Source: a virus (Duplodnaviria; Heunggongvirae; Uroviricota; Caudoviricetes). Taken from it: 15,630 nucleotides of DNA. The DNA lies in the IMG/VR virus record IMGVR_UViG_2574180220_000001, one strand, 5' to 3'. Positions 1 to 15,630 of the stretch are shown one piece after another. The notes beneath the pieces are model-generated. The model made no database searches, was not told where the DNA came from, and worked only from the letters and a program-made list of their open reading frames with translations. The number at the start of each line of letters is the position of its first letter. Positions within the stretch are counted from its first letter, which is position 1. The position numbers and the translations under genes are program-made.

Positions 1-1284
1 TTACTTCTTCGCCTCTGCAACCACTTTACTACCCACGCCGCGGTTATTGTATTCCCACATGCGGTTGTAGTTAGTGTCATTCAGATTGCGCTGTATTTCG
101 TCGTTATCATCTACGCTGCCGGTATTACCCGCAAACGGACGATTAGAGATCACCGCATCGGCCCACGGTTTAGCCGTGTTAAAACCTTCGTTGATGGCGC
201 TATCACGGATCACCACCTGACCGTTGGTATTGGCATCAACATCCAGCGAGCGGCCCAGTTGCGCCACACCATCACCGAAAGCATTGAAACGGCTGTTTAC
301 GGCGAGGAAACCGTAGTAAATGTTGGACAGCGTAGCCGGTGCAAACACATACGCTTCTTGCTGAGTACGTGAGTTCACCACGCGGAATTCGGTGTTATCG
401 AACACCACTGCGCCGCGACCAGAAACGATATCCACATCCCCTTCAATGTAGCTGTTGGTCACCAGCGTACGCGGCTGACGATTCGTTTCCAGACGGTTCT
501 GCACACCGCTGTTGGTGACAAAGAAGGTGTTCTGACGACCGAGAATGTTAACGTTGTTAATCTGTACCTGGTCACCATCAGTACGCAGTGCCACCGCCGG
601 ATGGTTACCTGCATCTACGCTATCGCCCAGCGTGTTTTCGATGGTCAGATTTTGCAGTTGCAGGCCATTGTTTTGTGACCAGAAGACCGCAGAGCAGAGA
701 ACACCGATACTGTCGCTGCGTTTGCTCTGGCAGCTATCGTACATATACCACGCTGGTTTACCTGGCATATATTTGCCGCGCGGGTTGACGTCGTGACGCC
801 AGTCGGCAGGGCTCATGCCACCATCAAGGGAAAGCCCAATCTTCACATCAATCGGTTTTTCACCTGTACCGTACAGAGTAATTCCACCCGGAGCGGCAGG
901 GACATATACCGTTCCCTGATACTCACCAGGCATCACGGCAATATACTGGCGCTTGTTGGTACGCTTGATAATTGCCGCATCTACCGCCGCCTGAATCGTG
1001 GTATGCGTTACACCTTGAGTGCCCGCCGGGCCGACAACAAAGTCAGGTTGCGCAGGCAGGGTAATCGGGGAAGGATTCCACGCTGCTGCACCTGGTGTCA
1101 GGGATGCAAAATAGTGTTGAGCATCGAAATTCTGCGCTTCTTTTGCCGACAGAATCGGGCGAGAAGAGGTACCAGGCGCGGTTTGATCAGAAGGACGTTG
1201 ATCGGGCGGGGTTGAGCTACAGGCGGTCAGCGTCACGCCAAAAGCCAATGCCAGCGCCAGACGGGAAACTGAAAATGTGTTCAC
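1..1284 (-). CDS. ybhC: YbhC-like outer-membrane lipoprotein (pectinesterase-fold, acyl-CoA thioesterase family)
   Basis: 427-aa ORF with lipoprotein signal (LALAFGVTLTAC); matches my recollection of E. coli YbhC, which flanks lambda attB on the gal side. Stop codon is at window position 1-3. Confidence 0.85.
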   Translation of the reverse strand: MNTFSVSRLALALAFGVTLTACSSTPPDQRPSDQTAPGTSSRPILSAKEAQNFDAQHYFASLTPGAAAWNPSPITLPAQPDFVVGPAGTQGVTHTTIQAAVDAAIIKRTNKRQYIAVMPGEYQGTVYVPAAPGGITLYGTGEKPIDVKIGLSLDGGMSPADWRHDVNPRGKYMPGKPAWYMYDSCQSKRSDSIGVLCSAVFWSQNNGLQLQNLTIENTLGDSVDAGNHPAVALRTDGDQVQINNVNILGRQNTFFVTNSGVQNRLETNRQPRTLVTNSYIEGDVDIVSGRGAVVFDNTEFRVVNSRTQQEAYVFAPATLSNIYYGFLAVNSRFNAFGDGVAQLGRSLDVDANTNGQVVIRDSAINEGFNTAKPWADAVISNRPFAGNTGSVDDNDEIQRNLNDTNYNRMWEYNNRGVGSKVVAEAKK

Positions 1285-1323
1285 AGGTTGCTCCGGGCTA
1301 TGAAATAGAAAAATGAATCCGTT

Positions 1324-1418
1324 GAAGCCTGCTTTTTTATACTAAGTTGGCATTATAAAAAAGCATTGCTTATCAATTTGTTGCAACGAACAGGTCACTA
1401 TCAGTCAAAATAAAATCA
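1324..1418. other. Prophage attL (B-O-P'): lambda core GCTTTTTTATACTAA at 1331-1345 followed by the P' arm with Int arm-type sites and an IHF site
   Basis: Seen directly: 15-bp lambda att core, then GTTGGCATTATAAAAAAGCATTGCTTATCAATTTGTTGCAACGAACAGGTCACTATCAGTCAAAATAAAATCATTAT, matching the lambda P' arm; it abuts the 3' end of int. Confidence 0.9.
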
Positions 1419-2489
1419 TTATTTGATTTCAATTTTGTCCCACTCCCTGCCTCTGTCATCACGATACTGTGATGCCATGGTGTCCGACTTATGCCCGAGA
1501 AGATGTTGAGCAAACTTATCGCTTATCTGCTTCTCATAGAGTCTTGCAGACAAACTGCGCAACTCGTGAAAGGTAGGCGGACCCCCTTCGAAGGAAAGAC
1601 CTGATGCTTTTCGTGCGCGCATAAAATACCTTGATACTGTGCCGGATGAAAGCGGTTCGCGACGAGTAGATGCAATTATGGTTTCTCCGCCAAGAATCTC
1701 TTTGCATTTATCAAGTGTTTCCTTCATTGATATTCCGAGAGCATCAACATGCAATGCTGTTGGGATGGCAATTTTTACGCCTGTTTTGCTTTGCTCGACA
1801 TAAAGATATCCATCTACGATATCAGACCACTTCATTTCGCATAAATCACCAACTCGCTGCCCGGTAACAACAGCCAGTTCCATTGCAAGTCTAAGCCAAC
1901 ATGGTGATGATTCTGCTGCTTGATAAATTTTCAGGTATTCGTCAGCCGTAAGTCTTGATCTCCTTACCTCTGATTTTGCAGCGCGAGTGGCTGCGACCGG
2001 GTTTGTTGTTATATGGCCTTCAGCTATAGCCTCTCGGAATGCATCGCTCAGTGTTGATCTGATTAACTTGGCTGATGCCGCCTTGCCCTCGTCTATGTAT
2101 CCATTGAGCATTGCCGCAATTTCTTTTGTGGTGATGTCTTCAAGTGGAGCATCAGGCAGACCCCTCCTTATTGCTTTAATTTTGCTCATGTAATTTATGA
2201 GTGTCTTCTGCTTGATTCCTCTGCTGGCCAGGATTTTTTCGTAGCGATCAAGCCATGAATGTAACGTAACGGAATTATCACTGTTGATTCTCGCTGTCAG
2301 AGGCTTGTGTTTGTGTCCTGAAAATAACTCAATGTTGGCCTGTATAGCTTCAGTGATTGCGATTCGCCTGTCTCGGCCTAATCCAAACTCTTTACCCGTC
2401 CTTGGGTCCCTGTAGCAGTAATATCCATTGTTTCTTATATAAAGGTTAGGGGGTAAATCCCGGCGCTCATGACTTCGCCTTCTTCCCAT
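1419..2489 (-). CDS. int: Lambda-type tyrosine integrase Int
   Basis: 356-aa ORF (MGRRRSHERRDLPPNLYIRNNGYYCYRDPRTGKEF...) essentially as I recall lambda Int; 3' end adjacent to attL and 5' end overlapping xis, as in lambda. Confidence 0.97.
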   Translation of the reverse strand: MGRRRSHERRDLPPNLYIRNNGYYCYRDPRTGKEFGLGRDRRIAITEAIQANIELFSGHKHKPLTARINSDNSVTLHSWLDRYEKILASRGIKQKTLINYMSKIKAIRRGLPDAPLEDITTKEIAAMLNGYIDEGKAASAKLIRSTLSDAFREAIAEGHITTNPVAATRAAKSEVRRSRLTADEYLKIYQAAESSPCWLRLAMELAVVTGQRVGDLCEMKWSDIVDGYLYVEQSKTGVKIAIPTALHVDALGISMKETLDKCKEILGGETIIASTRREPLSSGTVSRYFMRARKASGLSFEGGPPTFHELRSLSARLYEKQISDKFAQHLLGHKSDTMASQYRDDRGREWDKIEIK

Positions 2490-2685
2490 TTCTGATCCTC
2501 TTCAAAAGGCTACCTGTTACTGGTCGATTTAAGTCAACCTTTACCGCTGATTCGTGGAACAGATACTCTCTTCCATCCTTAACCGGAGGAGGGAATATCC
2601 TGCACTCGCGTACCCATCGACGAACTGTTTCAAGGCTTCTTGGGCGTCGCTGGCGTGCGTTCCACTCCTGAAGTGTCAAGTACAT
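2467..2685 (-). CDS. xis: Excisionase Xis
   Basis: 72-aa ORF MYLTLQEWNARQRRPRSLETVRRWVRECRIFPPPVKDGREYLFHESAVKVDLNRPVTGSLLKRIRNGKKAKS, matching lambda Xis; overlaps int start. Confidence 0.95.
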   Translation of the reverse strand: MYLTLQEWNARQRRPRSLETVRRWVRECRIFPPPVKDGREYLFHESAVKVDLNRPVTGSLLKRIRNGKKAKS

Positions 2686-2711
2686 CGCAAAGTCTCCGCA
2701 ATTACACGCAA

Positions 2712-2735
2712 GAAAAAACCGCCATCAGGCGGCTT
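2712..2735 (-). terminator. Putative intrinsic terminator hairpin (GCCGCC-UGAU-GGCGG followed by U6 on the minus-strand transcript)
   Basis: Seen in sequence: GC stem with 4-nt loop and a run of six T on the minus strand; overlaps the stop codon of the 55-aa ORF upstream of xis. Confidence 0.4.
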
Positions 2736-2892
2736 GGTGTTCTTTCAGTTCTTCAATTCGAATATTGGTTACGTCTGCATGTGCTATCTGCGCCCACAGC
2801 ATCCAGTGGTCATAGCAGTCGCTGATGTTCTCGGCTTCGATAACTCTGTTGAATGGTTCTCCATTCCATTCACCTGTAACTCGGAAGTGCAT
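2725..2892 (-). CDS. Small hypothetical protein (lambda orf-55-like), 55 aa
   Basis: Hand-translated minus-strand ORF MHFRVTGEWNGEPFNRVIEAENISDCYDHWMLWAQIAHADVTNIRIEELKEHQAA; below the 60-aa cutoff of the ORF track. Size and position between xis and ea8.5 match lambda. Confidence 0.6.
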   Translation of the reverse strand: MHFRVTGEWNGEPFNRVIEAENISDCYDHWMLWAQIAHADVTNIRIEELKEHQAA

Positions 2893-2980
2893 TTATCATC
2901 GCCATAAAACAAAACTCGCCGTAGCGAGTTCAGATAAAAGAAATCCCCGCGAGTGCGAGGATAGTTACTTGTTCATATTA

Positions 2981-3262
2981 TTAATCGTCAATGTATTTTG
3001 AGCATTGTGGGCAATCATCGATCCCACAATACGATTCATATGCATCCTTTATTGCGTCGCGGGCTTCAGTAAGAGTATTGAATAAGTTGCAGCTATTATC
3101 TTTTTGATATAGGTAAGTTCCTAATTTATAAGCAGAAGAAGCATCATTTCCGCTGTCTAAAATTACATCGTTATGGATTCTGCACCTTGCAAGAACTCCT
3201 GATCCCATAAGGGTCTGCATAGCCCATTGCTCTTGATCTTCACACAAATCATGAATGCTCAT
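2981..3262 (-). CDS. ea8.5: Ea8.5-like protein (93 aa, C-terminal Cys-rich motif)
   Basis: Track ORF 2981..3280 begins at a GTG; the ATG at 3262 (MSIHDLCEDQ...) has a GAGAGG Shine-Dalgarno and gives 93 aa, the size and position of lambda ea8.5. C-terminus CGIDDCPQC. Confidence 0.75.
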   Translation of the reverse strand: MSIHDLCEDQEQWAMQTLMGSGVLARCRIHNDVILDSGNDASSAYKLGTYLYQKDNSCNLFNTLTEARDAIKDAYESYCGIDDCPQCSKYIDD

Positions 3263-3376
3263 TTCAACACCTCTCTTCACGTTTCACACACGTTAAGATT
3301 AACAGTGTTTTTACATGCTTTGGGAGATTTATTTTATAAAAACTCTTTTAATACAAATAGATATAATAGTTCACTA

Positions 3377-4105
3377 TTATAGCTCCTTTAATCGAGGCGG
3401 TTCTGGTAGAGGCATCCAGTGGGTTACACCGCCAATTGGCTCATCGTCGTCGTACTCCAATGCGGCTATATAGAACCCGTCACGACGAGAATAAGAAATC
3501 CCGGACATTACAATGCCATCCGAAACAACAATAATGTCACCCGTTTCTTTCGGCATTCGCTCACTACAGCTTATCCAACCATCCGGAGTCACCGGAAGCG
3601 AGAACGGCAGCACATCTCTGTGAACAAGTTTTTGCTGTGACAGGTTATCCAGAACTTTCTGTACTGCTGCATCACCGAATACACCAAGCGCATCTGCCAT
3701 AACTCCTACAACCTGATAAGCCTCAGCGCATACCGTGGATAAACCATCCGGAATTACCGGAGAGTTACGGTCCTTGCGGTAAATCCGGCATGTACAGGAT
3801 TCATTGTCCTGCTCAAAGTCCATGCCATCAAACTGCTGGTTTTCATTGATGATGCGGGACCAGCCATCAACGCCCACCACCGGAACAATGCCGTTCTGCT
3901 TATCAGGGAAGGCGTAAATTTCTTTCGTCCACGGATTAAGGCCGTACTGGTTGGCGACGATCAGCAATGCGATGAACTGCGCATCGCTGGCATCACCTTT
4001 AAATGCCGTCTGGCGAAGAGTGGTGATCAGTTCCTGTGGGTCGACAGAATCCATGCCGACACGTTCAGCCAGCTTCCCAGCCAGCGTTGCGAGTGCTGTA
4101 CTCAT
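3377..4105 (-). CDS. Chimeric ORF: N-terminal ~115 aa of Bet (Red-beta annealing protein) fused in frame to a non-Bet C-terminus ending in a DUF551-like motif (VTHWMPLPEPP)
   Basis: Residues 1-115 (MSTALATLAGKLAERVGMDSVDPQELITTLRQ...NESCTCRIYRKDRN) match lambda Bet; the sequence then diverges completely (SPVIPDGLSTVCAEAY...GGVTHWMPLPEPPRLKEL). No exo gene lies downstream. Junction near plus coordinate 3760. Confidence 0.8.
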   Translation of the reverse strand: MSTALATLAGKLAERVGMDSVDPQELITTLRQTAFKGDASDAQFIALLIVANQYGLNPWTKEIYAFPDKQNGIVPVVGVDGWSRIINENQQFDGMDFEQDNESCTCRIYRKDRNSPVIPDGLSTVCAEAYQVVGVMADALGVFGDAAVQKVLDNLSQQKLVHRDVLPFSLPVTPDGWISCSERMPKETGDIIVVSDGIVMSGISYSRRDGFYIAALEYDDDEPIGGVTHWMPLPEPPRLKEL

Positions 4106-4110
4106 CCGTT

Positions 4111-4527
4111 TTATACCTCTGAATCAATATCAACCTGGTGGTGAGCAATGGTTTCAACCATGTACCGGATGTGTTCTGCCATGCGCTCCTGAAACTCAAC
4201 ATCGTCATCAAACGCACGGGTAATGGCTTTTTTGCTGGCCCCGTGGCGTTGCAAATGATCGATGCATAGCGATTCAAACAGGTGCTGGGGCAGGCCTTTT
4301 TCCATGTCGTCTGCCAGTTCTGCCTCTTTCTCTTCACGGGCGATCTGCTGGTAGTGACGCGCCCAGCTCTGAGCCTCAAGACGATCCTGAATGTAATAAG
4401 CGTTCATGGCTGAACTCCTGAAATAGCTGTGAAAATATCGTCCGCGAAATGCCGGGCTGATTAGGAAAACAGGGAAGGGGGGTAGTGAATGCTTTTGCTT
4501 GATCTCAGTTTCAGTATTAATATCCAT
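4111..4527 (-). CDS. gam: Gam (RecBCD inhibitor), 138 aa
   Basis: [15 protein letters not shown]...[10 protein letters not shown] matches lambda Gam; internal Met (MNAYYIQ) corresponds to the GamS start. Confidence 0.95.
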
Positions 4528-4625
4528 TTTTTATAAGCGTCGACGGCCTCACGAAACATCTTTTCATCGCCAATAAAAGTGGCGATAGTGAATTTAGTCT
4601 GGATAGCCATAAGTGTTTGATCCAT
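4461..4625 (-). CDS. kil: Kil (FtsZ-targeting host-killing peptide), ~54 aa here
   Basis: [39 protein letters not shown]...; start has an AGGAG Shine-Dalgarno and overlaps cIII by 32 nt and gam by 67 nt. I recall lambda Kil as 47 aa, so the C-terminus may be extended here. Confidence 0.8.
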
Positions 4626-4758
4626 TTTTTGGGACTCCTGGCTGATTAAGTATGTCGATAAGGCGTTTCCATCCGTCACGTAATTTACGGGTGATTCGTT
4701 CAAGTAAAGATTCGGAAGGGCAGCCAGCAACAGGCCACCCTGCAATGGCATATTGCAT
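4594..4758 (-). CDS. cIII: CIII (FtsH/HflB inhibitor), 54 aa
   Basis: Hand-translated [54 protein letters not shown] with AAGGAG Shine-Dalgarno; below the ORF-track size cutoff. Confidence 0.9.
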   Translation of the reverse strand: MQYAIAGWPVAGCPSESLLERITRKLRDGWKRLIDILNQPGVPKNGSNTYGYPD

Positions 4759-4785
4759 GGTGTGCTCCTTATTTATACATAACGA

Positions 4786-4808
4786 AAAACGCCTCGAGTG
4801 AAGCGTTA
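4786..4808 (-). terminator. Weak terminator-like hairpin between ea10 and cIII (short stem followed by U5 on the minus transcript)
   Basis: Seen in sequence: AACGC...GCGTT stem around an XhoI palindrome, then TTTTT on the minus strand. Could correspond to a pL-operon terminator; weak. Confidence 0.3.
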
Positions 4809-4830
4809 TTGGTATGCGGTAACGCCGCGC

Positions 4831-5199
4831 TCAGGCGGCTTTGATAGTCATATCATCTGGATCAAATATTCCTGATGTATCGATATCGGTAATTCTTATT
4901 CCTTCGCTACCATCCATTGGAGGCCATCCTTCCTGACCATTTCCATCATTCCAGTCGAACTCACACACAACACCATATGCATTTAAGTCGCTTGAAATTG
5001 CTATAAGCAGAGCATGTTGCGCCAGCATGATTAATACAGCATTTAATACAGAGCCGTGTTTATTGAGTCGGTATTCAGAGTCTGACCAGAAATTATTAAT
5101 CTGGTGAAGTTTTTCCTCTGTCATTACGTCATGATCGATTTCAATTTCTATTGATGCTTTCCAGTCGTAATCAATGATGTATTTTTTGATGTTTGACAT
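4831..5199 (-). CDS. ea10: Ea10 (lambda Ssb-like protein), 122 aa
   Basis: 122-aa ORF MSNIKKYIIDYDWKASIEIEIDHDVMTEEKL... matching lambda Ea10 in size, sequence and position. Confidence 0.9.
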   Translation of the reverse strand: MSNIKKYIIDYDWKASIEIEIDHDVMTEEKLHQINNFWSDSEYRLNKHGSVLNAVLIMLAQHALLIAISSDLNAYGVVCEFDWNDGNGQEGWPPMDGSEGIRITDIDTSGIFDPDDMTIKAA

Positions 5200-5381
5200 C
5201 TATTCATATCCTCATAGATAAAAAATCGCCCTCACACTGGAGGGCAAAGAAGATTTCCAATAATCAGAACAAGTCGGCTCCTGTTTAGTTACGAGCGACA
5301 TTGCTCCGTGTATTCACTCGTTGGAATGAATACACAGTGCAGTGTTTATTCTGTTATTTATGCCAAAAATAAAGGCCACTA

Positions 5382-5582
5382 TCAGGCAGCTTTGTTGTTC
5401 TGTTTACCAAGTTCTCTGGCAATCATTGCCGTCGTTCGTATTGCCCATTTATCGACATATTTCCCATCATCCATTACAGGAAACATTTCTTCAGGCTTAA
5501 CCATGCATTCCGATTGCAGCTTGCATCCATTGCATCGCTTGAATTGTCCACACCATTGATTTTTATCAATAGTCGTAGTCAT
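5382..5582 (-). CDS. ral: Ral (restriction alleviation protein), 66 aa
   Basis: MTTTIDKNQWCGQFKRCNGCKLQSECMVKPEEMFPVMDDGKYVDKWAIRTTAMIARELGKQNNKAA matches lambda Ral; 183-bp spacing to ea10 as in lambda. Confidence 0.92.
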   Translation of the reverse strand: MTTTIDKNQWCGQFKRCNGCKLQSECMVKPEEMFPVMDDGKYVDKWAIRTTAMIARELGKQNNKAA

Positions 5583-5687
5583 ACGGATAGTCCTGGTATT
5601 GTTCCATCACATCCTGAGGATGCTCTTCGAACTCTTCAAATTCTTCTTCCATGTATCACCTTAAATAGTGGATTGCGGTAGTAAAGA

Positions 5688-5909
5688 TTGTGCATGGCCC
5701 GTCTGAAAAAGAACAACAGCGATTTGCACGATTTATTAGTAGATTATTATATAGTCGGTATGACATTCATGTCACTGGCAGGTAAGCATTGCTGCTCTGA
5801 TGGTTATATCGGGAAAAGGTTACAAAAGGCTGAGGGCATAATTGAAGGGATGTTAATGGCATTAGATATCCGGTTAGAGATGGATATCGTTGTTAATAAC
5901 TCTAATTAA
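5688..5909 (+). pseudogene. 5'-truncated remnant (C-terminal ~71 aa) of an antiterminator Q gene of the phage 82 / DLP12 QuuD type
   Basis: [71 protein letters not shown] resembles the C-terminus of Q82/QuuD as I recall it; frame is closed by a TAA just upstream; lies immediately upstream of the porin and lysis genes, where Q sits in DLP12/PA-2-type phages. Lambda-like sequence ends at about 5693. Confidence 0.55.
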
Positions 5910-5928
5910 TACGCCAATTATTTACTAA

Positions 5929-5960
5929 AAGTTATTAAAAATGGGGCGTTGAAACGCCCC
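5929..5960 (-). terminator. Intrinsic terminator downstream of the porin gene (GGGGCG-UUUCAA-CGCCCC then AUUUUU on the minus transcript)
   Basis: Seen in sequence: 6-bp GC stem followed by a U-tract on the minus strand; the last of four consecutive hairpins 3' of the porin gene. Confidence 0.5.
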
Positions 5961-6097
5961 CAAAAATAAAGGGTAATATATAACAGAAGGTTTATATAGT
6001 TAGAAGCAAGGTTGTGCTTCTAAAGGAAGTGGCTTGAGGGAGCCACTTATATGTTGGGGAGGCAAAGCCTCCCACAACATATCTTTTAGTAATCAAA

Positions 6098-7180
6098 TTA
6101 GAACTGGTAAACCATACCTACAGCAACGATATCATCGGTAGCAACGCCAGATGCTTTCGTGAAATCGCTCTTATCAATCAGGTTGATTTTGTAGTCAACA
6201 AAAGTGGACATATTTTTGTTGAAGTAATAGGTTGCACCTACATCAACATATTCAACCAGGTCCTGATCACCCCAAACACCCAAGTCTTTTCCTTTAGAAT
6301 GCAGGTAAGCAACGGATGGACGCAGGCCGAAGTCGAACTGATATTGTGCAACAGCTTCGAAGTTTTGTGCTTTGTTGGCAATATGGTTATTACCAAAAAC
6401 AGTCATGTTCTGGGTTTCAGAATAGGTGGTAGCCAGATAGATGTTGTTCGCATCATATTTCAGACCAGCTGCCCATACTTCAGCATTTTGACCAGAAGCA
6501 TTCAGACCGTTGTTACCGTAGATAACCTGATTATTAGTGCGATCAGATTTAGCATAGGTTGCACCCACGCCGAATCCTTCATACTCATAAGTAGTTGAGA
6601 AACCGAAACCATCGCCATTAGCTTCAGTTACTTCATTTCGGTCATTTTTGCCCTGATACTGAGCTGCAAAGTTCAGGCCATCAACCAGACCAAAGAAGTC
6701 GTTGTTACGATAAGTTGCAACACCTGTGGTGCGACCAGTCATGAATACATCTGTTTGGGTCCAGGTATCGCCACCGAATTCTGGCAGAACGTCGGTCCAT
6801 GCACCGATGTCGTATGCTACACCGTAGTTACGGCCGTAATCGATGGAGCCGTAGTCACCGAATTTCAGGCCAGCGAAGGCAAGACGGGTTTTATCTTTGG
6901 AGGAACCTTGAGATTCAGCGCGGTTGCCTTTGAATTCATATTCCCACTGACCGAAACCAGTCAGTTGATCGTTGATTTGGGTTTCACCTTTGAAGCCAAG
7001 ACGGGCATAAGTAGTATCACCATCATCTGCATCATTAGAGGAGAAGTAGTGCTTGGCATTAACTTTCCCGTACAGATCCAGCTTGTTACTGTCTTTATTA
7101 TAAATTTCAGCTGCCTGAGCAGACATCGCCATCAGTACTGATGCAGCTACAGCAGAAATTGCCACTGTTAATTTTTTCAT
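6098..7180 (-). CDS. nmpC: OmpC-family general porin, prophage-encoded NmpC/Lc-like, intact (360 aa)
   Basis: Signal peptide [23 protein letters not shown], porin motifs ([57 protein letters not shown]), C-terminal VYQF. Position between Q and the holin matches the lc/nmpC moron of PA-2/DLP12. Confidence 0.85.
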
Positions 7181-7608
7181 CGTGAGCCCTTTTTTTTGAA
7201 CTATTATTAAAAAATGATGTCACTGCGCGATAAATATTCATCTAATCAATGTGATTATTTCAAGATGTAAGTTTTAGTTTCTCGTTTGATTTGTGAAGTA
7301 GATCTCTATTTTTATCTGAACTTTTTTCTATCGAATCCTATTCATGGCTCTTGGCTGAATAAAAATAAATCTATTAGCCAATTTATATTAACGGCTGTTA
7401 TTTATAAGTGCTCTATAATTTGAAGGTTCAATTTAAACCGGCTAAAAATAACACTGGAAATTATTTATTGGTTATTTGTTGAGATTTTCTTATGTATTTG
7501 TAGTGGTGTTTTCAATACTCGGTAGCATTCTCGCAAATATCATTTAGTGGTTTACGTACGTAAAAAATTGGTTATGCTGTTAAGAGTGGTTACTTCGTCA
7601 CACAGCTT

Positions 7609-7641
7609 AAACCCGCCGTCGAGCGGGTTTTTCCATTTTTT
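7609..7641 (+). terminator. Intrinsic terminator upstream of the holin gene, tR'-like (AAACCCGC-CGTCGA-GCGGGTTT then TTCCATTTTTT)
   Basis: Seen in sequence: 8-bp stem and T-rich tract on the plus strand about 130 bp before the holin start. A possible late promoter (TTTACG ... TATGCT, about 7551-7578) precedes it, with low confidence. Confidence 0.5.
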
Positions 7642-7769
7642 GAGTCTCGATATTAGCTGATAACCCAATACCTGAGTTATTCACTGACTCCGAGTCTGTT
7701 ACGTTTCTGCTTTTTTGCGATACGTTGTATTCCCTCAATTTACACCCGCTTTGTCTGCGAGGTGGGGTT

Positions 7770-7985
7770 ATGAAATCCATGGATAAGTTAACAACGGGTG
7801 TCGCCTATGGCACCTCAGCAGGTAGTGCCGGTTACTGGTTTTTACAGCTGCTCGATAAAGTCACGCCCTCACAGTGGGCAGCAATAGGTGTGCTGGGTAG
7901 CCTGGTATTTGGCCTGCTGACGTACCTGACAAACCTTTATTTCAAGATTAAAGAAGATAAGCGCAAGGCTGCGAGAGGTGAATAA
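7770..7985 (+). CDS. S: Class II holin (pinholin), phage 21 S-type, 71 aa with dual-start motif MKSMDK
   Basis: [71 protein letters not shown] resembles S21 / EssD; GGTGGGG Shine-Dalgarno. The track ORF 7725..7985 begins at an upstream start. Confidence 0.85.
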
Positions 7986-8482
7986 TGCCTCCATCATTAC
8001 GAAAAGCCGTTGCTGCTGCTATTGGTGGCGGAGCAATTGCTATAGCATCAGTGTTAATTACTGGCCCAAGTGGTAACGATGGTCTGGAAGGTGTCAGCTA
8101 CGTACCATACAAAGATATCGTTGGCGTATGGACTGTATGTCACGGACACACCGGAAAAGACATCATGCTCGGTAAAACGTATACCAAAGCAGAATGCAAA
8201 GCACTCTTGAATAAAGACCTTGCCACTGTCGCCAGACAAATTAACCCGTACATCAAAGTCGATATACCGGAAACAACGCGCGGCGCTCTTTACTCATTCG
8301 TTTACAACGTGGGTGCTGGCAATTTCAGAACATCGACGCTTCTTCGCAAAATAAACCAGGGCGATATCAAAGGCGCATGTGATCAGCTACGTCGCTGGAC
8401 ATATGCTGGCGGTAAGCAATGGAAAGGTCTCATGACTCGTCGTGAGATTGAGCGTGAAATCTGTTTGTGGGGTCAGCAATGA
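7985..8482 (+). CDS. R: SAR endolysin (T4-lysozyme-like, GH24), phage 21 R-type, 165 aa
   Basis: N-terminal Gly/Ala-rich signal-arrest-release segment ([20 protein letters not shown]), catalytic E-x8-D/C-x5-T region ([23 protein letters not shown]); start overlaps the holin stop. Confidence 0.9.
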
Positions 8483-8940
8483 ACAGAGTAACCGCGATTA
8501 TCTCCGCTCTGGTTATCTGCATCATCGTCTACCTGTCATGGGCTGTTAATCATTACCGTGATAACGCCATTACCTACAAAGCCCAGCGCGACAAAAATGC
8601 CAGAGAACTGAAGCTGGCGAACGCGGCAATTACTGACATGCAGATGCGTCAGCGTGATGTTGCTGCGCTCGATGCAAAATACACGAAGGAGTTAGCTGAT
8701 GCTAAAGCTGAAAATGATGCTCTGCGTGATGATGTTGCCGCTGGTCGTCGTCGGTTGCACATCAAAGCAGTCTGTCAGTCAGTGCGTGAAGCCACCACCG
8801 CCTCCGGCGTGGATAATGCAGCCTCCCCCCGACTGGCAGACACCGCTGAACGGGATTATTTCACCCTCAGAGAGAGGCTGATCACTATGCAAAAACAACT
8901 GGAAGGAACCCAGAAGTATATTAATGAGCAGTGCAGATAG
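8479..8940 (+). CDS. Rz: Rz inner-membrane spanin (i-spanin)
   Basis: [55 protein letters not shown]... matches lambda Rz; ATGA overlap with the R stop. Track lists 8467 as an alternative upstream start. Confidence 0.9.
8699..8881 (+). CDS. Rz1: Rz1 outer-membrane lipoprotein spanin (o-spanin), embedded in the +1 frame of Rz
   Basis: [60 protein letters not shown]; lipobox LVVVGC and proline-rich region; fully nested inside Rz as in lambda. Confidence 0.9.
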
Positions 8941-8971
8941 AGTTGCCCATATCGATGGGCAACTCATGCAA

Positions 8972-9265
8972 TTATTGTGAGCAATACACACGCGCTTCCA
9001 GCGGAGTATAAATGCCTAAAGTAATAAAACCGAGCAATCCATTTACGAATGTTTGCTGGGTTTCTGTTTTAACAACATTTTCTGCGCCGCCACAAATTTT
9101 GGCTGCATCGACAGTTTTCTTCTGCCCAATTCCAGAAACGAAGAAATGATGGGTGATGGTTTCCTTTGGTGCTACTGCTGCCGGTTTGTTTTGAACAGTA
9201 AACGTCTGTTGAGCACATCCTGTAATAAGCAGGGCCAGCGCAGTAGCGAGTAGCATTTTTTTCAT
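8972..9265 (-). CDS. bor: Bor lipoprotein (serum-resistance, Iss-like lysogenic conversion protein), 97 aa
   Basis: MKKMLLATALALLITGCAQQTFTVQNKPAAVAPKETITHHFFVSGIGQKKTVDAAKICGG... matches lambda Bor; lipobox LITGC. Confidence 0.9.
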   Translation of the reverse strand: MKKMLLATALALLITGCAQQTFTVQNKPAAVAPKETITHHFFVSGIGQKKTVDAAKICGGAENVVKTETQQTFVNGLLGFITLGIYTPLEARVYCSQ

Positions 9266-9555
9266 GGTGTTATTCCCGATGCTTTTTGAAGTTCGCAGAA
9301 TCGTATGTGTAGAAAATTAAACAAACCCTAAACAATGAGTTGAAATTTCATATTGTTAATATTTATTAATGTATGTCAGGTGCGATGAATCGTCATTGTA
9401 TTCCCGGATTAACTATGTCCACAGCCCTGACGGGGAACTTCTCTGCGGGAGTGTCCGGGAATAATTAAAAACGATGCACACAGGGTTTAGCGCGTACACG
9501 TATTGCATTATGCCAACGCCCCGGTGCTGACACGGAAGAAACCGGACGTTATGAT

Positions 9556-10089
9556 TTAGCGTGGAAAGATTTGTGTAGTGTTCTGAATGCTCTCAGTAAA
9601 TAGTAATGAATTATCAAAGGTATAGTAATATCTTTTATGTTCATGGATATTTGTAACCCATCGGAAAACTCCTGCTTTAGCAAGATTTTCCCTGTATTGC
9701 TGAAATGTGATTTCTCTTGATTTCAACCTATCATAGGACGTTTCTATAAGATGCGTGTTTCTTGAGAATTTAACATTTACAACCTTTTTAAGTCCTTTTA
9801 TTAACACGGTGTTATCGTTTTCTAACACGATGTGAATATTATCTGTGGCTAGATAGTAAATATAATGTGAGACGTTGTGACGTTTTAGTTCAGAATAAAA
9901 CAATTCACAGTTTAAATCTTTTCGCACTTGATCGAATATTTCTTTAAAAATGGCAACCTGAGCCATTGGTAAAACCTTCCATGTGATACGAGGGCGCGTA
10001 GTTTGCATTATCGTTTTTATCGTTTCAATCTGGTCTGACCTCTTTGTGTTTTGTTGATGATTTATGTCAAATATTAGGAATGTTTTCAC
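9556..10089 (-). CDS. Hypothetical protein at the position of lambda p78, possibly DUF1398 / YbcV-like; function unknown
   Basis: 177-aa ORF; size and spacing to bor and to the next ORF match the lambda right arm. An internal Met ([11 protein letters not shown]...) would give 136 aa, the size I recall for DLP12 YbcV. Family assignment is from memory only. Confidence 0.65.
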
Positions 10090-10251
10090 TTAATAGTATT
10101 GGTTGCGTAACAAAGTGCGGTCCTGCTGGCATTCTGGAGGGAAATACAACCGACAGATGTATGTAAGGCCAACGTGCTCAAATCTTCATACAGAAAGATT
10201 TGAAGTAATATTTTAACCGCTAGATGAAGAGCAAGCGCATGGAGCGACAAA

Positions 10252-10458
10252 ATGAATAAAGAACAATCTGCTGATGATCCCTCCGTGGATCTGATTCGTG
10301 TAAAAAATATGCTTAATAGCACCATTTCTATGAGTTACCCTGATGTTGTAATTGCATGTATAGAACATAAGGTGTCTCTGGAAGCATTCAGAGCAATTGA
10401 GGCAGCGTTGGTGAAGCACGATAATAATATGAAGGATTATTCCCTGGTGGTTGACTGA
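10252..10458 (+). CDS. Hypothetical 68-aa protein at the position of lambda p79 (YbcW-like)
   Basis: [71 protein letters not shown]; 163-bp spacing from the preceding ORF as in lambda. Confidence 0.6.
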
Positions 10459-10622
10459 TCACCATAACTGCTAATCATTCAAACTATTTAGCCTGTGACA
10501 GAGCCAACACGCAGTCTGTCACTGTCAGGAAAGTGGTAAAACTGCAACTCAATTACTGCAATGCCCTCGTAATTAAGTGAATTTACAATATCGTCCTGTT
10601 CGGAGGGAAGAACGCGGGATGT

Positions 10623-10817
10623 TCATTCTTCATCACTTTTAATTGATGTATATGCTCTCTTTTCTGACGTTAGTCTCCGACGGCAGGCTTCAATGACCCA
10701 GGCTGAGAAATTCCCGGACCCTTTTTGCTCAAGAGCGATGTTAATTTGTTCAATCATTTGGTTAGGAAAGCGGATGTTGCGGGTTGTTGTTCTGCGGGTT
10801 CTGTTCTTCGTTGACAT
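10623..10817 (-). CDS. Putative ribbon-helix-helix (Arc/CopG-like) DNA-binding protein, 64 aa
   Basis: MSTKNRTRRTTTRNIRFPNQMIEQINIALEQKGSGNFSAWVIEACRRRLTSEKRAYTSIKSDEE: basic N-terminal tail, beta-strand (RNIRFP), helix, G-x-S-x-N turn, second helix; typical RHH pattern. Lies ~200-400 bp upstream of cos. No strong Shine-Dalgarno. Confidence 0.45.
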   Translation of the reverse strand: MSTKNRTRRTTTRNIRFPNQMIEQINIALEQKGSGNFSAWVIEACRRRLTSEKRAYTSIKSDEE

Positions 10818-11009
10818 GAGGTTGCCCCGTATTCAGTGTCGCTGATTTGTATTGTCTGAAGTTGTTTTTACGTTAAGTTGATGCAGATCAATTAATACGA
10901 TACCTGCGTCATAATTGATTATTTGACGTGGTTTGATGGCGTAGATGCACGTTGTGACATGCAGATGATAATTATTATCATTTTGCGGGTCCTTTCCGGT
11001 GATCCGACA

Positions 11010-11200
11010 GGTTACGGGGCGGCGACCTCGCGGGTTTTCGCTATTTATGAAAATTTTCCGGTTTAAGGCGTTTCCGTTCTTCTTCGTCATAACTTAATGT
11101 TTTTATTTAAAATACCCTCTGAAAAGAAAGGAAGCGACAGGTGCTGAAAGCGAGCTTTTTGGCCTCTGTCGTTTCCTTTCTCTGTTTTTGTCCGTGGAAT
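11010..11200. other. cos region: cosN 12-nt cohesive-end sequence GGGCGGCGACCT at about 11017-11028, followed by cosB up to the nu1 start
   Basis: Seen in sequence: GGGCGGCGACCTCGCGGGTTTTCGCTATTTATGAAAATTTTCCGGTTTAAGGCG... matches the lambda left end / cos junction as I recall it. Confidence 0.85.
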
Positions 11201-11205
11201 GAACA

Positions 11206-11775
11206 ATGGAAGTCAACAAAAAGCAGCTGGCTGACATTTTCGGTGCGAGTATCCGTACCATTCAGAACTGGCAGGAACAGGGAATGCCCGTTCTGCGAGG
11301 CGGTGGCAAGGGTAATGAGGTGCTTTATGACTCTGCCGCCGTCATAAAATGGTATGCCGAAAGGGATGCTGAAATTGAGAACGAAAAGCTGCGCCGGGAG
11401 GTTGAAGAACTGCGGCAGGCCAGCGAGGCAGATCTCCAGCCAGGGACTATTGAGTACGAACGCCATCGACTTACGCGTGCGCAGGCCGACGCACAGGAAC
11501 TGAAGAATGCCAGAGACTCCGCTGAAGTGGTGGAAACCGCATTCTGTACTTTCGTGTTGTCGCGGATCGCAGGTGAAATTGCCAGTATTCTCGACGGGAT
11601 CCCCCTGTCGGTGCAGCGGCGTTTTCCGGAACTGGAAAACCGACATGTTGATTTCCTGAAACGGGATATCATCAAAGCCATGAACAAAGCAGCCGCGCTG
11701 GATGAACTGATAACGGGGCTAAAGCGCAGGCGCTCACTATCAACAAGGATGAGGTTAACTCAACTGTTGATTTAA
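11206..11775 (+). CDS. nu1: Terminase small subunit Nu1 with its C-terminus replaced (first ~170 aa lambda-like, last ~19 aa unrelated)
   Basis: MEVNKKQLADIFGASIRTIQNWQEQGMPVLRGGGKGNEVLYDSAAVIKWY... matches lambda Nu1 up to ...KAMNKAAALDELI, then diverges (TGLKRRRSLSTRMRLTQLLI); no terminase large subunit gene follows. Confidence 0.85.
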   Translation: MEVNKKQLADIFGASIRTIQNWQEQGMPVLRGGGKGNEVLYDSAAVIKWYAERDAEIENEKLRREVEELRQASEADLQPGTIEYERHRLTRAQADAQELKNARDSAEVVETAFCTFVLSRIAGEIASILDGIPLSVQRRFPELENRHVDFLKRDIIKAMNKAAALDELITGLKRRRSLSTRMRLTQLLI

Positions 11776-12428
11776 CTCTTACAAAACAAACAGGGACTGG
11801 AAATCGTTTTGTTTTACAGAACTTAGGTAATACAGAACTATCATTTGCCGCAAAAGTATGGGGATCAAGTGATCGACAAAACGTTTTTGAGGTTGGAACG
11901 TCTGCTGCGTATCTGTTTTATGCGCAAAAAACGTCAGCAGGCCAGTTGTTTGATGTAAATGGCGCTATTAATTGCACAACGCTGAATCAGTCATCAGACC
12001 GCGACCTTAAAGACGATATTCTCGTTATCAGCGACGCGACGAAAGCAATCCGTAAAATGAACGGATACACCTACACGCTCAGGGAAAACGGGATGCCTTA
12101 TGCTGGCGTTATTGCACAGGAAGTAATGGAGGCGATACCAGAAGCTGTGGGATCGTTTACTCATTACGGTGAAGAGTTGCAGGGACCAACGGTTGACGGC
12201 AATGAATTACGTGAAGAAACACGTTATCTGAATGTTGACTACGCCGCCGTGACGGGGTTACTTGTTCAGGTCGCCCGTGAAACAGATGGTCGCGTTACCG
12301 CGCTGGAAGAGGAAAACATAACGCTACGTAAAAATCTGGCAACAGCAGGCACCCGGATCAGCACTCTGGAAAATCAGGTAAGCGAACTGGTTGCACTTGT
12401 CCGGCAGTTAACAGGAAGCGAACATTGA
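11706..12428 (+). pseudogene. C-terminal fragment of a tail fibre / tailspike gene carrying a peptidase S74-type intramolecular chaperone domain; no own start at the junction
   Basis: Frame is open from the nu1 junction; contains the autoproteolysis-type motif SSDRDLKDDI followed by NGYTYTLRENGMPYAGVIAQEVMEAIPEAV and a C-terminal coiled-coil-like segment. Track reports only the Met-initiated part, 11946..12428. Confidence 0.6.
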
Positions 12429-13467: not shown

Positions 13468-13529
13468 CGGTCTCGAAAACCGGAGTAGGGGCAACTCTAC
13501 CGGGGGTTCAAATCCCCCTCTCTCCGCCA
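13468..13529 (+). tRNA. Partial tRNA-Ser (CGA anticodon; serU-like) 3' portion only (anticodon arm, variable arm, T-arm, acceptor 3' strand, CCA); 5' part absent
   Basis: GGTCTCGAAAACCGGAGTAGGGGCAACTCTACCGGGGGTTCAAATCCCCCTCTCTCCGCCA matches the 3' two-thirds of E. coli tRNA-Ser(CGA) as I recall it; upstream sequence cannot pair to form the acceptor or D arms. Confidence 0.7.
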
Positions 13530-14104: not shown

Positions 14105-14857
14105 GTGGATGATATGGCAACTACATGTTCAGTTATATTGATTTTGGAGTCCTTTGATGTTTATTTCGGAAAAGAGAGTGTGTTTCTGGAGAGAGGTTCA
14201 TCTGTACTTGTCGACTCTAGCTCTAGAGATTTTTTCCTGACATATCCTGAAAGAGTGATAGTGGCGGATTTTGGCGCTGAGTTTATTAGTCGCTATTTGA
14301 AAGCTAATAACTTAAGGGATATTTCTGATTGTAGGGAATATCCATCTTATTTAAAAATAAACTTTGCTGACTTCAGTTTAATTAAAGGATTAATTAGTTG
14401 GGCTAATCACTGTGCTGAATACATAGAAATTTTTGATGAGTCTATTGCTTTTACATGTCTCTCTGCATTTTCTTCTGAAAAACAATTTGGAGTATTTCTG
14501 TTTGAATGTTTGAAAAGCACAGGGGCTAAAGTTAAAACGATTATTCATACGGATTTATCTGCACCATGGCGTCTTAAGGATATATCATCAAGATTATATC
14601 TCAGCGAAAGTTTACTAAAGAGGAAATTGAAAGAAGAGGGGGTATCATTCAGTAAGATCATACTTGATGAGAGGATGCAAATGGCTGAATATTTACTCAG
14701 CACTCGTTGTTATCCTATTAGTAAAGTAGCTAAGGTCTGTGGTTATGCCAGTGTTTCATACTTTACTTATGTATTTAGACGTTATTTTGGTGTTTCTCCA
14801 AGTCAATACTCTCAGAGCAGTTCAGAAAGTAAAATTCTTACTCACCAGGGAATCTGA
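14105..14857 (+). CDS. AraC/XylS-family transcriptional regulator (YdeO/AppY/GadX-like), 250 aa
   Basis: C-terminal double helix-turn-helix region (PWRLKDISSRLYLSESLLKRKLKEEGVSFSKIILDERMQMAEYLL...VAKVCGYASVSYFTYVFRRYFGVSPSQY) typical of AraC family; AT-rich codon usage consistent with horizontally acquired DNA. Confidence 0.85.
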   Translation: MDDMATTCSVILILESFDVYFGKESVFLERGSSVLVDSSSRDFFLTYPERVIVADFGAEFISRYLKANNLRDISDCREYPSYLKINFADFSLIKGLISWANHCAEYIEIFDESIAFTCLSAFSSEKQFGVFLFECLKSTGAKVKTIIHTDLSAPWRLKDISSRLYLSESLLKRKLKEEGVSFSKIILDERMQMAEYLLSTRCYPISKVAKVCGYASVSYFTYVFRRYFGVSPSQYSQSSSESKILTHQGI

Positions 14858-15351
14858 TCATTGTTCTTGCCCCCTTATTTCCAGACAGGGGGTGTATCTT
14901 AAGTTAACGTTACCCGCTGACGTCGATATTCTCGCGGAGAGCGATAACCCAACGCACTGTGCGGATGGTTTTCATTGTAATGTTCGATCGCCACTGCAAG
15001 ATTATGCAATGCCGTTCTTACATTCGGTTTCGGCATGAACGCGATGTAGTCTTCCTTCATCGTTTTCACGAACCTTTCTGCCATTCCATTACTCTGAGGA
15101 CTGCTGATTGCCGTTGTGCAGGGCTCCAGATTCAACTCTCTGGCGAACTGCCATGTTTCATGCGCTCTATACGCTGAACCGTTATCTGTCAGCCACTGGA
15201 TGGACTGTTCCGGTACTTTATCGCCAAAGCGTTTTTCTATCGCTCCTAACATGACATCCTGCACTGTCGCTTTATCGTAACCTCCCGTGCTTGCGGCCCA
15301 GTCTATGGCTTCACGATCGCAACAGTCCAGGGCGAACGTAACACGCAGTTT
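14858..15351 (-). mobile_element. Truncated IS2-like element (IS3 family): terminal inverted repeat plus the 3' half of orfB
   Basis: Terminal sequence TTGCCCCCTTATTTCCAGACA resembles the IS2 end; minus-strand ORF fragment [24 protein letters not shown]...[50 protein letters not shown]...[14 protein letters not shown] resembles the IS2 OrfB integrase core. The 5' part is cut off at about 15351. Confidence 0.7.
14899..15351 (-). pseudogene. IS3-family (IS2-like) transposase OrfB, C-terminal fragment
   Basis: DDE/rve integrase-core motifs ([25 protein letters not shown]); the frame is open upstream of the reported Met but lacks the N-terminal half. Confidence 0.7.
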
Positions 15352-15630
15352 TGAATCGCCACGGGTTTAACAGACACCTCAGAGTCATTTAAGATGGCTT
15401 AAAGAGAGGTGCCCATGAGCGGTAAGCGTTATCCCGAAGAGTTTAAAACTGAAGCAGTCAAACAGGTTGTTGATCGCGGTTATTCTGTTGCCAGCGTTGC
15501 AACACGTCTCGATATCACCACCCACAGCCTTTATGCCTGGATAAAGAAGTACGGTCCGGATTACTCCACTTTTTCATCAAGCCAATCCGCCCACCACTGC
15601 ATCATTTCTCTGCGCTTATCGAAATACTGA
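15352..15630 (+). mobile_element. Left end of a second IS3-family element (IR beginning TGAATCGCCACGGG) with orfA; continues beyond the window
   Basis: IR-like terminus starting with TGA about 63 bp upstream of an orfA-type ORF; inserted into the IS2-like orfB. Family assignment by general resemblance only. Confidence 0.6.
15415..15630 (+). CDS. IS3-family transposase OrfA (HTH protein), possibly truncated or frameshifted at its C-terminus
   Basis: MSGKRYPEEFKTEAVKQVVDRGYSVASVATRLDITTHSLYAWIKKYGPD... is a typical IS3-family OrfA N-terminus with a helix-turn-helix; ATG at 15415 preceded by AGAGAGG. The tail (YSTFSSSQSAHHCIISLRLSKY) lacks the usual leucine-zipper-like segment. Confidence 0.6.
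   Translation: MSGKRYPEEFKTEAVKQVVDRGYSVASVATRLDITTHSLYAWIKKYGPDYSTFSSSQSAHHCIISLRLSKY

Follow-up and report, generated by a model that had tools for sequence, protein, structure and literature searches.

In a lambdoid phage of the parental type, the late promoter pR' fires constitutively and RNA polymerase halts at the terminator tR'; once the antiterminator Q has loaded on polymerase paused near the promoter, tR' is ignored. The S pinholin then collapses the membrane potential, by which the membrane-tethered SAR (signal-anchor-release) endolysin R is released and activated, and the Rz/Rz1 spanin subsequently disrupts the outer membrane. Phage lambda shares the regulatory logic of the locus described here (Q, pR', 6S leader, tR', S, R, Rz, Rz1 and bor), but its Q gene is annotated at 624 nt as against 384 nt for quuD, and no match to lambda S or R was found in the window (the whole stretch of DNA analysed, 15,630 nucleotides), where homology to lambda late genes starts only at Rz. 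Phage 21 carries, as the window does, a pinholin, a SAR endolysin and an embedded spanin followed by bor, and its late leader is short as well, the annotated terminator spanning +2 to +50 of the pR' transcript; its Rz/Rz1 are 99% identical to those of the window. It differs in having tRNA genes and no porin gene between pR' and S, a diverged S allele (61/71 amino acids and 76% of nucleotides identical to the window S) and a Q with no more than a distant relationship to QuuD (E=8e-7, residues 8-87).

The DLP12 prophage of Escherichia coli K-12 has the same gene order as the window: Q, a porin gene on the minus strand, pR'-tR', S, R, Rz/Rz1, bor on the minus strand, ybcV, ybcW, ylcI and a Nu1 homologue, the corresponding DLP12 names being quuD, nmpC, essD-rrrD-rzpD/rzoD and borD. 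The two are 97.5% identical over 7715-9400. DLP12 lies at about 565-586 kb in MG1655, whereas the prophage in the window sits beside ybhC, at the lambda attachment site, and its left arm resembles that of lambda (int, xis, gam, kil, cIII with an RNA thermometer, and ral). Moreover, the porin gene is split by IS5 in DLP12 and in phage 434B but intact in the window, and 16 bp at 7707-7722 of the window are absent in K-12. Among working phages, ev243, PhiR34_1, PhiR68_2, mEp332 and 434B are 94-98.6% identical to the window at the DNA level from Q codon 56 to bor; in contrast to the element in the window, their Q and their genomes are complete. The Q-porin-S-R-Rz/Rz1-bor block as such is common, occurring in 1557 of 5426 complete E. 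coli genomes as well as in many phages and DLP12.

Compared with these systems, the window most probably holds (probability about 0.78) a decaying lambda-like prophage in the E. coli chromosome, from which a recent deletion took the start of Q while the lysis unit was left in place, probably silent. The features on which this reading is built are the following:

5690-5696, no strand assigned: deletion junction, at which lambda-like DNA upstream of ral is joined to the interior of Q
5690-5909, plus strand: Q' pseudogene, comprising codons 56-127 and the stop (the 3' 220 nt) of an antiterminator gene of QuuD type with 127 codons
6098-7180, minus strand: intact OmpC/NmpC-type porin gene, 360 aa (PF00267, E=4e-152), a moron between Q and pR'
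7551-7578, plus strand: putative late promoter pR', with -35 TTTACG at 7551-7556, a 16-bp spacer and -10 TATGCT at 7573-7578
7585-7641, plus strand: late leader with the intrinsic terminator tR', hairpin at 7609-7630, then TTCCATTTTTT
7770-7985, plus strand: S, phage-21-type pinholin/antiholin gene, 71 aa (PF04971, E=2e-35)
7985-8482, plus strand: R, SAR endolysin of the GH24 lysozyme family, 165 aa (PF00959, E=8e-46)
8479-8940, plus strand: Rz, inner-membrane spanin subunit, 153 aa (PF03245, E=3e-54)
8699-8881, plus strand: Rz1, outer-membrane lipoprotein spanin subunit, 60 aa (PF06085, E=3e-20)
8972-9265, minus strand: bor, a serum-resistance lipoprotein moron 3' of the cassette (PF06291), not a lysis gene

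The Q fragment lacks its original start codon and the N-terminal 55 codons. Its match to PF06530 is confined to positions 56-118 of the 118-position profile, and in BLAST comparisons with full-length quuD of K-12 and ev243 homology sets in at window position 5690, which corresponds to nt 165 of 384. PGAP annotates it as a pseudogene without N-terminus in genomes that are identical over 5300-9300, and RefSeq already names the locus as a quuD pseudogene with essD/rrrD/rzpD. DLP12 has the full 127-codon quuD, whereas only codons 56-127 of the cognate gene are present in this element; the original prediction that Q is reduced to a fragment, and is not a complete functional gene, is thus borne out. 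It had also hinted at a Q of the phage 82 type; the pR' sequence of phage 82 was sought by text search with no usable outcome, and the gene is therefore called QuuD-type (PF06530) here.

The left side of the junction is lambda-like (5300-5696, equivalent to lambda 34005-34401), and since the homology to Q begins at 5690, the two overlap by 7 bp, which suggests a microhomology-mediated deletion. A single event would have removed everything between ~110 bp upstream of ral and Q codon 55. On the lambda map, sieB, N, nutL and the pL operators lie beyond the junction point, and cI, cro, O and P were presumably in the lost stretch as well, judging by lambda gene order. That the prophage is non-inducible, as had been proposed, agrees with the extent of this deletion. 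The late unit downstream escaped the loss and comprises pR', a leader of ~50 nt with the tR' hairpin at its end, and S, R, Rz and Rz1. Apart from the lambda cIII thermometer (4713-4771), Rfam at the gathering threshold gave no RNA match in or near the region, and no tRNA was found there by ARAGORN.

A generic promoter scan misses pR', which matches the consensus at 8 of 12 positions, and so its assignment rests on homology: it aligns with the promoter annotated directly after Q in the Stx phage phi345, and the start site is accordingly placed near 7585. The terminator hairpin has an 8-bp stem followed by a T-run (minimum free energy of the leader, -13.9 kcal/mol). A scan of the DNA returned 9 terminator-like sites where 3.8 were expected from shuffles, and the stronger evidence for the predicted tR' is its conservation: the segment 7534-7706, including the pR' hexamers, the leader and tR', is 100% identical in K-12 DLP12, ev243 and 434B, and the tR' stem is also retained in SfII and a Stx phage. 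A probable promoter with a close intrinsic terminator 5' of lysis genes is the arrangement of a Q-antiterminated late operon. The original prediction of a tR'-type terminator upstream of S was right in substance, the terminator lying between pR' and S, but it ends 140 bp 5' of the S ATG and not about 130 bp; nor has it been stranded alone, as the entire pR'-leader-tR' unit is kept.

In Stx phages, the pR' transcript is reported to be 258 nt long (PMC7547250), and the homologue of the first hairpin sits at about +25 to +55 of it; the hairpin may therefore not be a tight stop, in Stx phages at least. The small RNA StxS, published as the 74-nt 3' end of that transcript (PMC7547250), was considered as a homologue of the leader and rejected: homology to Stx phages is limited to ~80 bp (7550-7632, the promoter and first hairpin), and a counterpart of the StxS 3'-end part is absent from the window. 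RpoE control, attributed to the DLP12 cassette by Rueggeberg 2015 (as cited in PMC7918800), was likewise considered by way of a sigma-E-like -35 element; 7181-7770 contains GAACTT just once, at 7318, where the promoter region of the porin gene lies, and this is not evidence for such control.

All four lysis genes proved intact, as predicted: reading frames and a Pfam profile search of the window gave no frameshift or stop in S, R, Rz or Rz1, and comparison with other alleles disclosed no inactivating change in S or R. The conserved overlaps can be read off the sequence (TAATG at 7983-7987 for S stop and R start, ATGA at 8479-8482 for R stop and Rz start), and Rz1 lies wholly within Rz in the +1 frame; on these points, too, the earlier description holds. 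S is covered by PF04971 at profile positions 1-63 of 64 and is 100% identical in protein to K-12 EssD and to S of 434B and ev243, the ev243 gene being the same also at the nucleotide level. It has a dual start (ATG AAA TCC ATG, 7770-7781), with 71 aa from the ATG at 7770 and 68 aa from that at 7779; the two start codons, M1 and M4, are also annotated in phage 21 and 434B (antiholin, 71 aa; holin, 68 aa). A simple hydropathy scan gave one strong segment in S (15-residue windows starting at 33-46), the putative first segment being Gly/Ala-rich and under the cut-off, as would be expected of a releasable segment.

The endolysin R is identical to RrrD (PDB 4zpu) at 163/165 residues, the differences I40V and V160I both being conservative; phage 21 R is likewise two residues off (163/165), and 3hde is matched at E=4e-111. 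Residues 1-39 equal those of RrrD, with hydrophobic windows beginning at residues 4-17, and the N-terminus is predicted to be a weakly hydrophobic signal-anchor-release segment and not a cleaved signal peptide. The translation contains E35, D44 and T50, which, going by R21, we take to be the catalytic Glu-Asp-Thr. Rz is identical to lambda Rz at 151/153 residues (S2N, C18Y) and has an N-terminal transmembrane segment in the hydropathy scan, while Rz1 has LVVVGC as its lipobox and matches lambda Rz1 at every nucleotide. By these sequence features, the predicted pair fits a two-component embedded spanin.

The combination of S and R of phage 21 type with lambda-type Rz/Rz1 and bor had been taken for a mosaic of modules. 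There is indeed a switch to the lambda allele, exactly at the Rz start (8479): from there on, through Rz/Rz1, bor (100% identical to lambda bor in nucleotides) and the DNA beyond, identity to lambda is 99.7%, against about 97% to K-12. The combination is not special to this element, though, since phage 21 itself has lambda-like genes at this place (Rz/Rz1 98.7/99.5% and bor 93.5% identical to lambda in nucleotides), and plaque-forming phages as well as DLP12 share the block. As a peculiarity of the element, the mosaic has to be given up.

How long ago Q was lost bears on what the intact genes can tell. The junction between the DNA upstream of ral and Q' was found at full length only in the 22 best-matching complete genomes, which are 99.6-100% identical over 4 kb; its restriction to near-identical genomes indicates that the deletion is recent, and the intact genes consequently say little on selection. 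The avian-pathogenic strain APEC O78, for instance, shares 4475-11718 at 99.97% (2 mismatches in 7244 nt). In three junction-bearing genomes that were checked, S is unchanged, and so are R and Rz save for one recombination patch within both genes in strain TD225-C4. The ybhC-int junction, considered as a further age marker, was discarded: the unrelated strain AMA1167 has a different, apparently complete lambdoid prophage at this site, and a common ybhC-int junction thus does not date the element. The dN/dS check suggested at the outset was run against phage and DLP12 alleles and gave values of 0-0.05 for S and R; because divergence after the deletion is near zero, these reflect the history of the genes in working phages and have no bearing on domestication. 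Of the two readings originally offered, domestication and very recent decay, the latter fits better. The intactness of the genes is due to the deletion being very recent and is no proof of retention by selection.

Since the element makes no Q in cis, the cassette should stay off and is probably silent, save for some read-through past tR', as long as no other lambdoid phage provides a compatible Q. With the whole pR'-leader-tR' unit retained, it should still be responsive to such a Q in trans. An alternative that appears unlikely as an explanation of the locus is that the cassette is switched on by a matching Q of a co-resident or superinfecting lambdoid phage, and that it also serves such phages as a stock of working late genes for recombination. 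Its control region in cis does not differ from that of working phages. QuuD is 78% identical to the Q of a Stx phage and the late promoter regions share a conserved block, which makes cross-recognition conceivable. When the 5' half of quuD was searched at blastn sensitivity, two extra chromosomal matches in APEC O78 and one in strain ACN002 emerged (0 in an anchor-only control), all diverged; at megablast sensitivity, neither strain has a near-identical second copy. Recombinational salvage would be in keeping with 434B, whose Q-nmpC::IS5-S segment, with a crossover point annotated in ylcG, has the IS5-split nmpC layout of DLP12 and whose four lysis proteins (S, R, Rz, Rz1) do not differ from those of K-12 DLP12, and also with the patch in TD225-C4. 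Trans-activation and salvage would nevertheless follow from the structure of the cassette and are not a sign of a selected function.

Distinctly unlikely is the view that S-R-Rz/Rz1, expressed at low level through terminator leak-through or a host sigma factor, serve the host and that the cassette has been kept by selection after Q loss, in roles such as those proposed for DLP12 (e.g. peptidoglycan turnover, outer-membrane vesicle output or biofilm). Domestication of the DLP12 cassette has already been proposed on the basis of experiments (Pasqua 2021, PMC7918800, and work cited there): deletion of this near-identical cassette led to ~4-fold more vesicles, and its expression changes with pH, osmolarity and temperature (PMC7918800). 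Pasqua et al. 2021 describe it as transcribed in K-12 and report mutant phenotypes (PMC7918800), so that some Q-independent transcription is possible. From about 7464 to the S start, a stretch equivalent to the upstream part of the DLP12 fragment cloned from -121 to +650 (PMC7918800), the window differs from K-12 by only three substitutions and the 16-bp indel. In sister lineages, the prophage has been struck by an IS2 insertion and by two or more additional, independent deletions, all of which spared the cassette; this is weakly compatible with selection. On the other hand, expression of the DLP12 cassette is reported to be Q-dependent (Rueggeberg 2013, as cited in PMC7918800), and the Q-like factor that, according to this citation, controls it in K-12 is truncated here. 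The confinement of the junction to near-identical genomes leaves no time for selection to show, the low dN/dS mirrors a past in working phages, and what has been retained in common with APEC O78 is not the cassette alone but a mixed 7.2-kb block of genes, which extends from a point before kil/cIII as far as Nu1. A host role acquired after Q loss in the avian-pathogenic lineage, either by stress-triggered leak-through at tR' with low-level pinholin and endolysin tuning cell-wall turnover or vesicle release, or by the ~50-nt leader acting as a regulatory RNA in analogy with StxS from the Stx-phage pR', is very improbable.

The locus is thus a textbook lambdoid late lysis unit in a cryptic prophage, a known kind of remnant, and has little import beyond its correct annotation. 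The question whether bacteria retain lysis cassettes of phages to their own benefit is a genuine one, and experiments on it have already been done with the near-identical DLP12 cassette. A modest use of the present element may lie in its being a natural Q-minus variant: if a strain with this copy displayed vesicle or biofilm phenotypes of the DLP12 type, Q in cis would not be needed for them.

All elements listed in the original prediction, which saw an intact lysis cassette orphaned from its antiterminator gene Q, were found in the window by ORF analysis, Pfam searches and a terminator scan. They lie within a lambda-like prophage that adjoins ybhC:

1-1284, minus strand: ybhC, at the window start
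1419-2489: int, with xis next in order
3377-4105, minus strand: Bet'-DUF551 fusion, a 242-aa ORF
4111-4527: gam
4713-4771: lambda cIII RNA thermometer, with kil/cIII
between cIII and ral: DUF2528 gene
5382-5582: ral
5690-5909: Q homology of the Q fragment, the listed ORF starting at TTG 5688
6098-7180, minus strand: intact porin gene, OmpC/NmpC-type, 360 aa, between Q and pR'
7551-7556 and 7573-7578, plus strand: -35 (TTTACG) and -10 (TATGCT) of the late promoter pR', predicted by alignment, with the start near 7585
7770-7985, plus strand: S, PF04971 (phage 21 holin)
7985-8482, plus strand: R, PF00959 (phage lysozyme)
8479-8940, plus strand: Rz, PF03245
8699-8881, plus strand: Rz1, within Rz, PF06085
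8972-9265, minus strand: bor
after bor, in this order: ybcV-, ybcW- and ylcI-like genes
11206-11775: Nu1 gene, broken near codon 171
11946-12428: tail-fibre C-terminal chaperone domain (Peptidase_S74), the next recognisable piece after Nu1

The four lysis genes match their Pfam families with E-values of 3e-20 to 3e-54, and the conserved overlaps are present as TAATG at 7983-7987 (S/R) and ATGA at 8479-8482 (R/Rz). Homology and a Shine-Dalgarno sequence identify ATG 7770 as the S start (codon 4 is another ATG) and overrule the TTG at 7725 given in the mechanical ORF list. The S protein is 100% identical to EssD of E. coli K-12 and to S of phage 434B and matches S21 at 61 of 71 residues; at the nucleotide level, S is 100% identical to that of phage ev243. 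R matches the 3hde lysozyme with E=4e-111 and is identical to RrrD (structure 4zpu) at 163 of 165 residues, and phage 21 R likewise differs from the window's R at two residues; the window's R retains E35, D44 and T50, and the sole residue absent from all comparison sequences, V40, is a conservative change from Ile. Two differences, S2N and C18Y, separate Rz from lambda Rz, residue 18 lying within the membrane segment and being Ser in K-12, and Rz1 and bor are nucleotide-identical to lambda. None of these genes shows an inactivating change, so the refutation named in the original prediction, inactivating mutations in S or R, does not apply.

Q, in contrast, is a fragment: it covers only positions 56-118 of the 118 in the Pfam profile, as compared to 1-118 for K-12 QuuD. 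Homology to lambda (99.2%) extends over 5300-5696, equivalent to lambda 34005-34401 just upstream of ral, and homology to ev243 and K-12 quuD begins at 5690, nucleotide 165 of 384, so that the two overlap by 7 bp at the deletion joint. Past the junction point, lambda has sieB, N, nutL and the pL operators and, by its gene order, also the immunity and replication genes; with this side lost, the element is without inducibility, as predicted. The alignment of QuuD with the solved Q21 protein spans residues 8-87. Since more than half of this region is lacking, activity of the Q fragment is very unlikely; in identical genomes, PGAP labels it a pseudogene.

The pR'-leader-tR' control region is whole, a point that the original prediction missed while correctly placing a terminator upstream of S: the stem of tR' is 8 bp long (7609-7630) and precedes TTCCATTTTTT, and the late leader folds with -13.9 kcal/mol. 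The segment 7550-7632 is homologous to Stx-phage DNA spanning the 3' end of Q, where phage phi345 has an annotated promoter at the matching position, then a hairpin. A four-way alignment of the window, phi345, SfII and 434B reveals a conserved block that starts at the -35 hexamer and includes the hairpin stem; the hairpin lies at ~+25 to +46 from the predicted start. Phage 21, whose record is carefully annotated, shows an equivalent arrangement (pR', Q-binding element, start site, pause element, terminator +2 to +50). The pR' assignment is a putative one, based on homology; a generic promoter scan did not call pR'. Positions 7534-7706 are identical in the window, K-12 DLP12 (a cryptic prophage with a homologous cassette), ev243 and 434B. 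In the S leader, 16 bp (CTGCTTTTTTGCGATA, 7707-7722) are present in the window and ev243 and absent from DLP12 and 434B. In phi345 (960-990), the tR'-homologous hairpin occupies ~+25 to +55 of the transcript from Stx pR', which is reported to be terminated at 258 nt (Sy et al., PMC7547250). This length fits the second phi345 terminator (~1165-1194), so that the first hairpin may either be leaky or belong to the Q-loading region.

The cassette had also been described as a module mosaic of phage-21-type S/R and lambda-type Rz/Rz1. Phage 21 and lambda are, however, 98.7% identical in Rz, 99.5% in Rz1 and 93.5% in bor, so phage 21 itself natively carries this combination. What stands is a switch at the level of alleles: S is the DLP12/434 allele, and a 99.7% match to lambda sets in with the first base of Rz (8479). 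The arrangement Q, porin, pR'-tR', S, R, Rz/Rz1, bor is widespread and recurs in DLP12: 29 phage records span at least 80% of 5600-9300, with 94-98.6% identity for the best ones, and among 5426 complete E. coli genomes, 1557 contain at least 80% of 5300-9300. The porin gene, intact in the window but split by IS5 in DLP12 and 434B, probably serves lysogenic conversion and can probably still be expressed in this element. Phage 434B carries the Q-nmpC::IS5-S segment (1229-4820) in the DLP12 layout, its record annotates a crossover point in ylcG, and it looks like a phage that acquired cryptic-prophage late genes through recombination.

How long Q has been lost can be read from relatives. A full-length match including the ral-Q' junction occurs in the 22 best-matching genomes (99.6-100% identity; listed hosts mostly poultry), and matches after those begin only at the Q fragment. 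Three junction genomes were compared base by base: in two, differences are confined to the porin gene and its flank, and in the third, strain TD225-C4, 14 substitutions cluster in R and Rz (window-equivalent 8203-8703), with one elsewhere in 4 kb and the RrrD protein accession unchanged. The cluster resembles a patch acquired by recombination with another lambdoid allele, within a Q-deleted prophage. Window and APEC O78 share 4475-11718 at 99.97%, and their secondary lesions differ. In APEC O78, an IS2 element has inserted, and gam is gone together with the N-terminus of Bet, of which a C-terminal fragment is kept. In the window, the Bet N-terminal part (RecT family, residues 24-99) is joined to a DUF551 domain (residues 176-237), and a deletion runs from Nu1 into the tail-fibre gene: Nu1 homology to APEC O78 stops at 11718 (~codon 171), the frame continues into unrelated sequence, and the head and tail genes in between, partly kept in APEC O78, are all missing. 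The Bet-region lesions are independent deletions in sister lineages; the Q deletion is therefore older than these events, and in sequence terms it is nevertheless very young.

At such divergence, at most ~1 substitution is expected in the 1.2-kb cassette, and its integrity is thus uninformative on selection. Compared with their alleles in DLP12, phage 21 and ev243, S and R have dN/dS values of 0-0.05, which reflect history in working phages. The original interpretation, domestication or very recent decay, is partly supported: the loss of Q in cis holds, the intact genes do not serve as a sign of selection, and the young junction makes recent decay the better reading.

An identical ybhC-int junction occurs in many unrelated genomes; in strain AMA1167 the adjoining lambdoid prophage is another one, apparently complete and equipped with a Q, essD and rrrD of its own, so the lambda attachment site hosts varied prophages sharing the int end. 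At 13475-13526, a short tRNA- or tmRNA-like 3' fragment (sub-threshold Rfam matches, 40.9 bits versus a gathering score of 68; no gene called by ARAGORN) may be an attachment-site remnant of another element. The stretch 14105-15630 holds an AraC-family regulator gene (250 aa) in low-GC sequence (0.37), then IS3-family transposase remnants on both strands.

Q might also be supplied in trans. Places per genome were counted with a composite of a single-copy anchor (ybhC-attL) and the missing 164-nt 5' part of quuD: megablast gave one place each in APEC O78 and ACN002, blastn three and two, respectively, and the anchor alone, by blastn, one each. No near-identical second quuD 5' half is thus present in either at megablast sensitivity; the extra blastn places stem from the Q part, and these genomes thus carry one to two diverged matches to the quuD 5' half elsewhere. 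QuuD is 78% identical to the Q of a Stx phage whose late promoter has the conserved block, and some cross-recognition between the two systems is conceivable. The window is collinear with no complete genome in the collection (best matches: 95% coverage in 3-5 pieces), and its own host could differ.

Loci of this kind are already known, this one has RefSeq annotation, and retention of a lysis cassette for release of vesicles or contents is an idea already published for the homologous DLP12 cassette. Deletion of the latter is reported to raise vesicle output ~4-fold, and its lysis operon has been termed domesticated (Pasqua et al. 2021, PMC7918800). Earlier studies cited there concern cell-wall maintenance and biofilm (Toba 2011) and reported control by a Q-like factor (Rueggeberg 2013), by RpoE (Rueggeberg 2015) and by Hha. 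By analogy with this reported Q control, the truncated Q argues for lower expression of the cassette in the window element.
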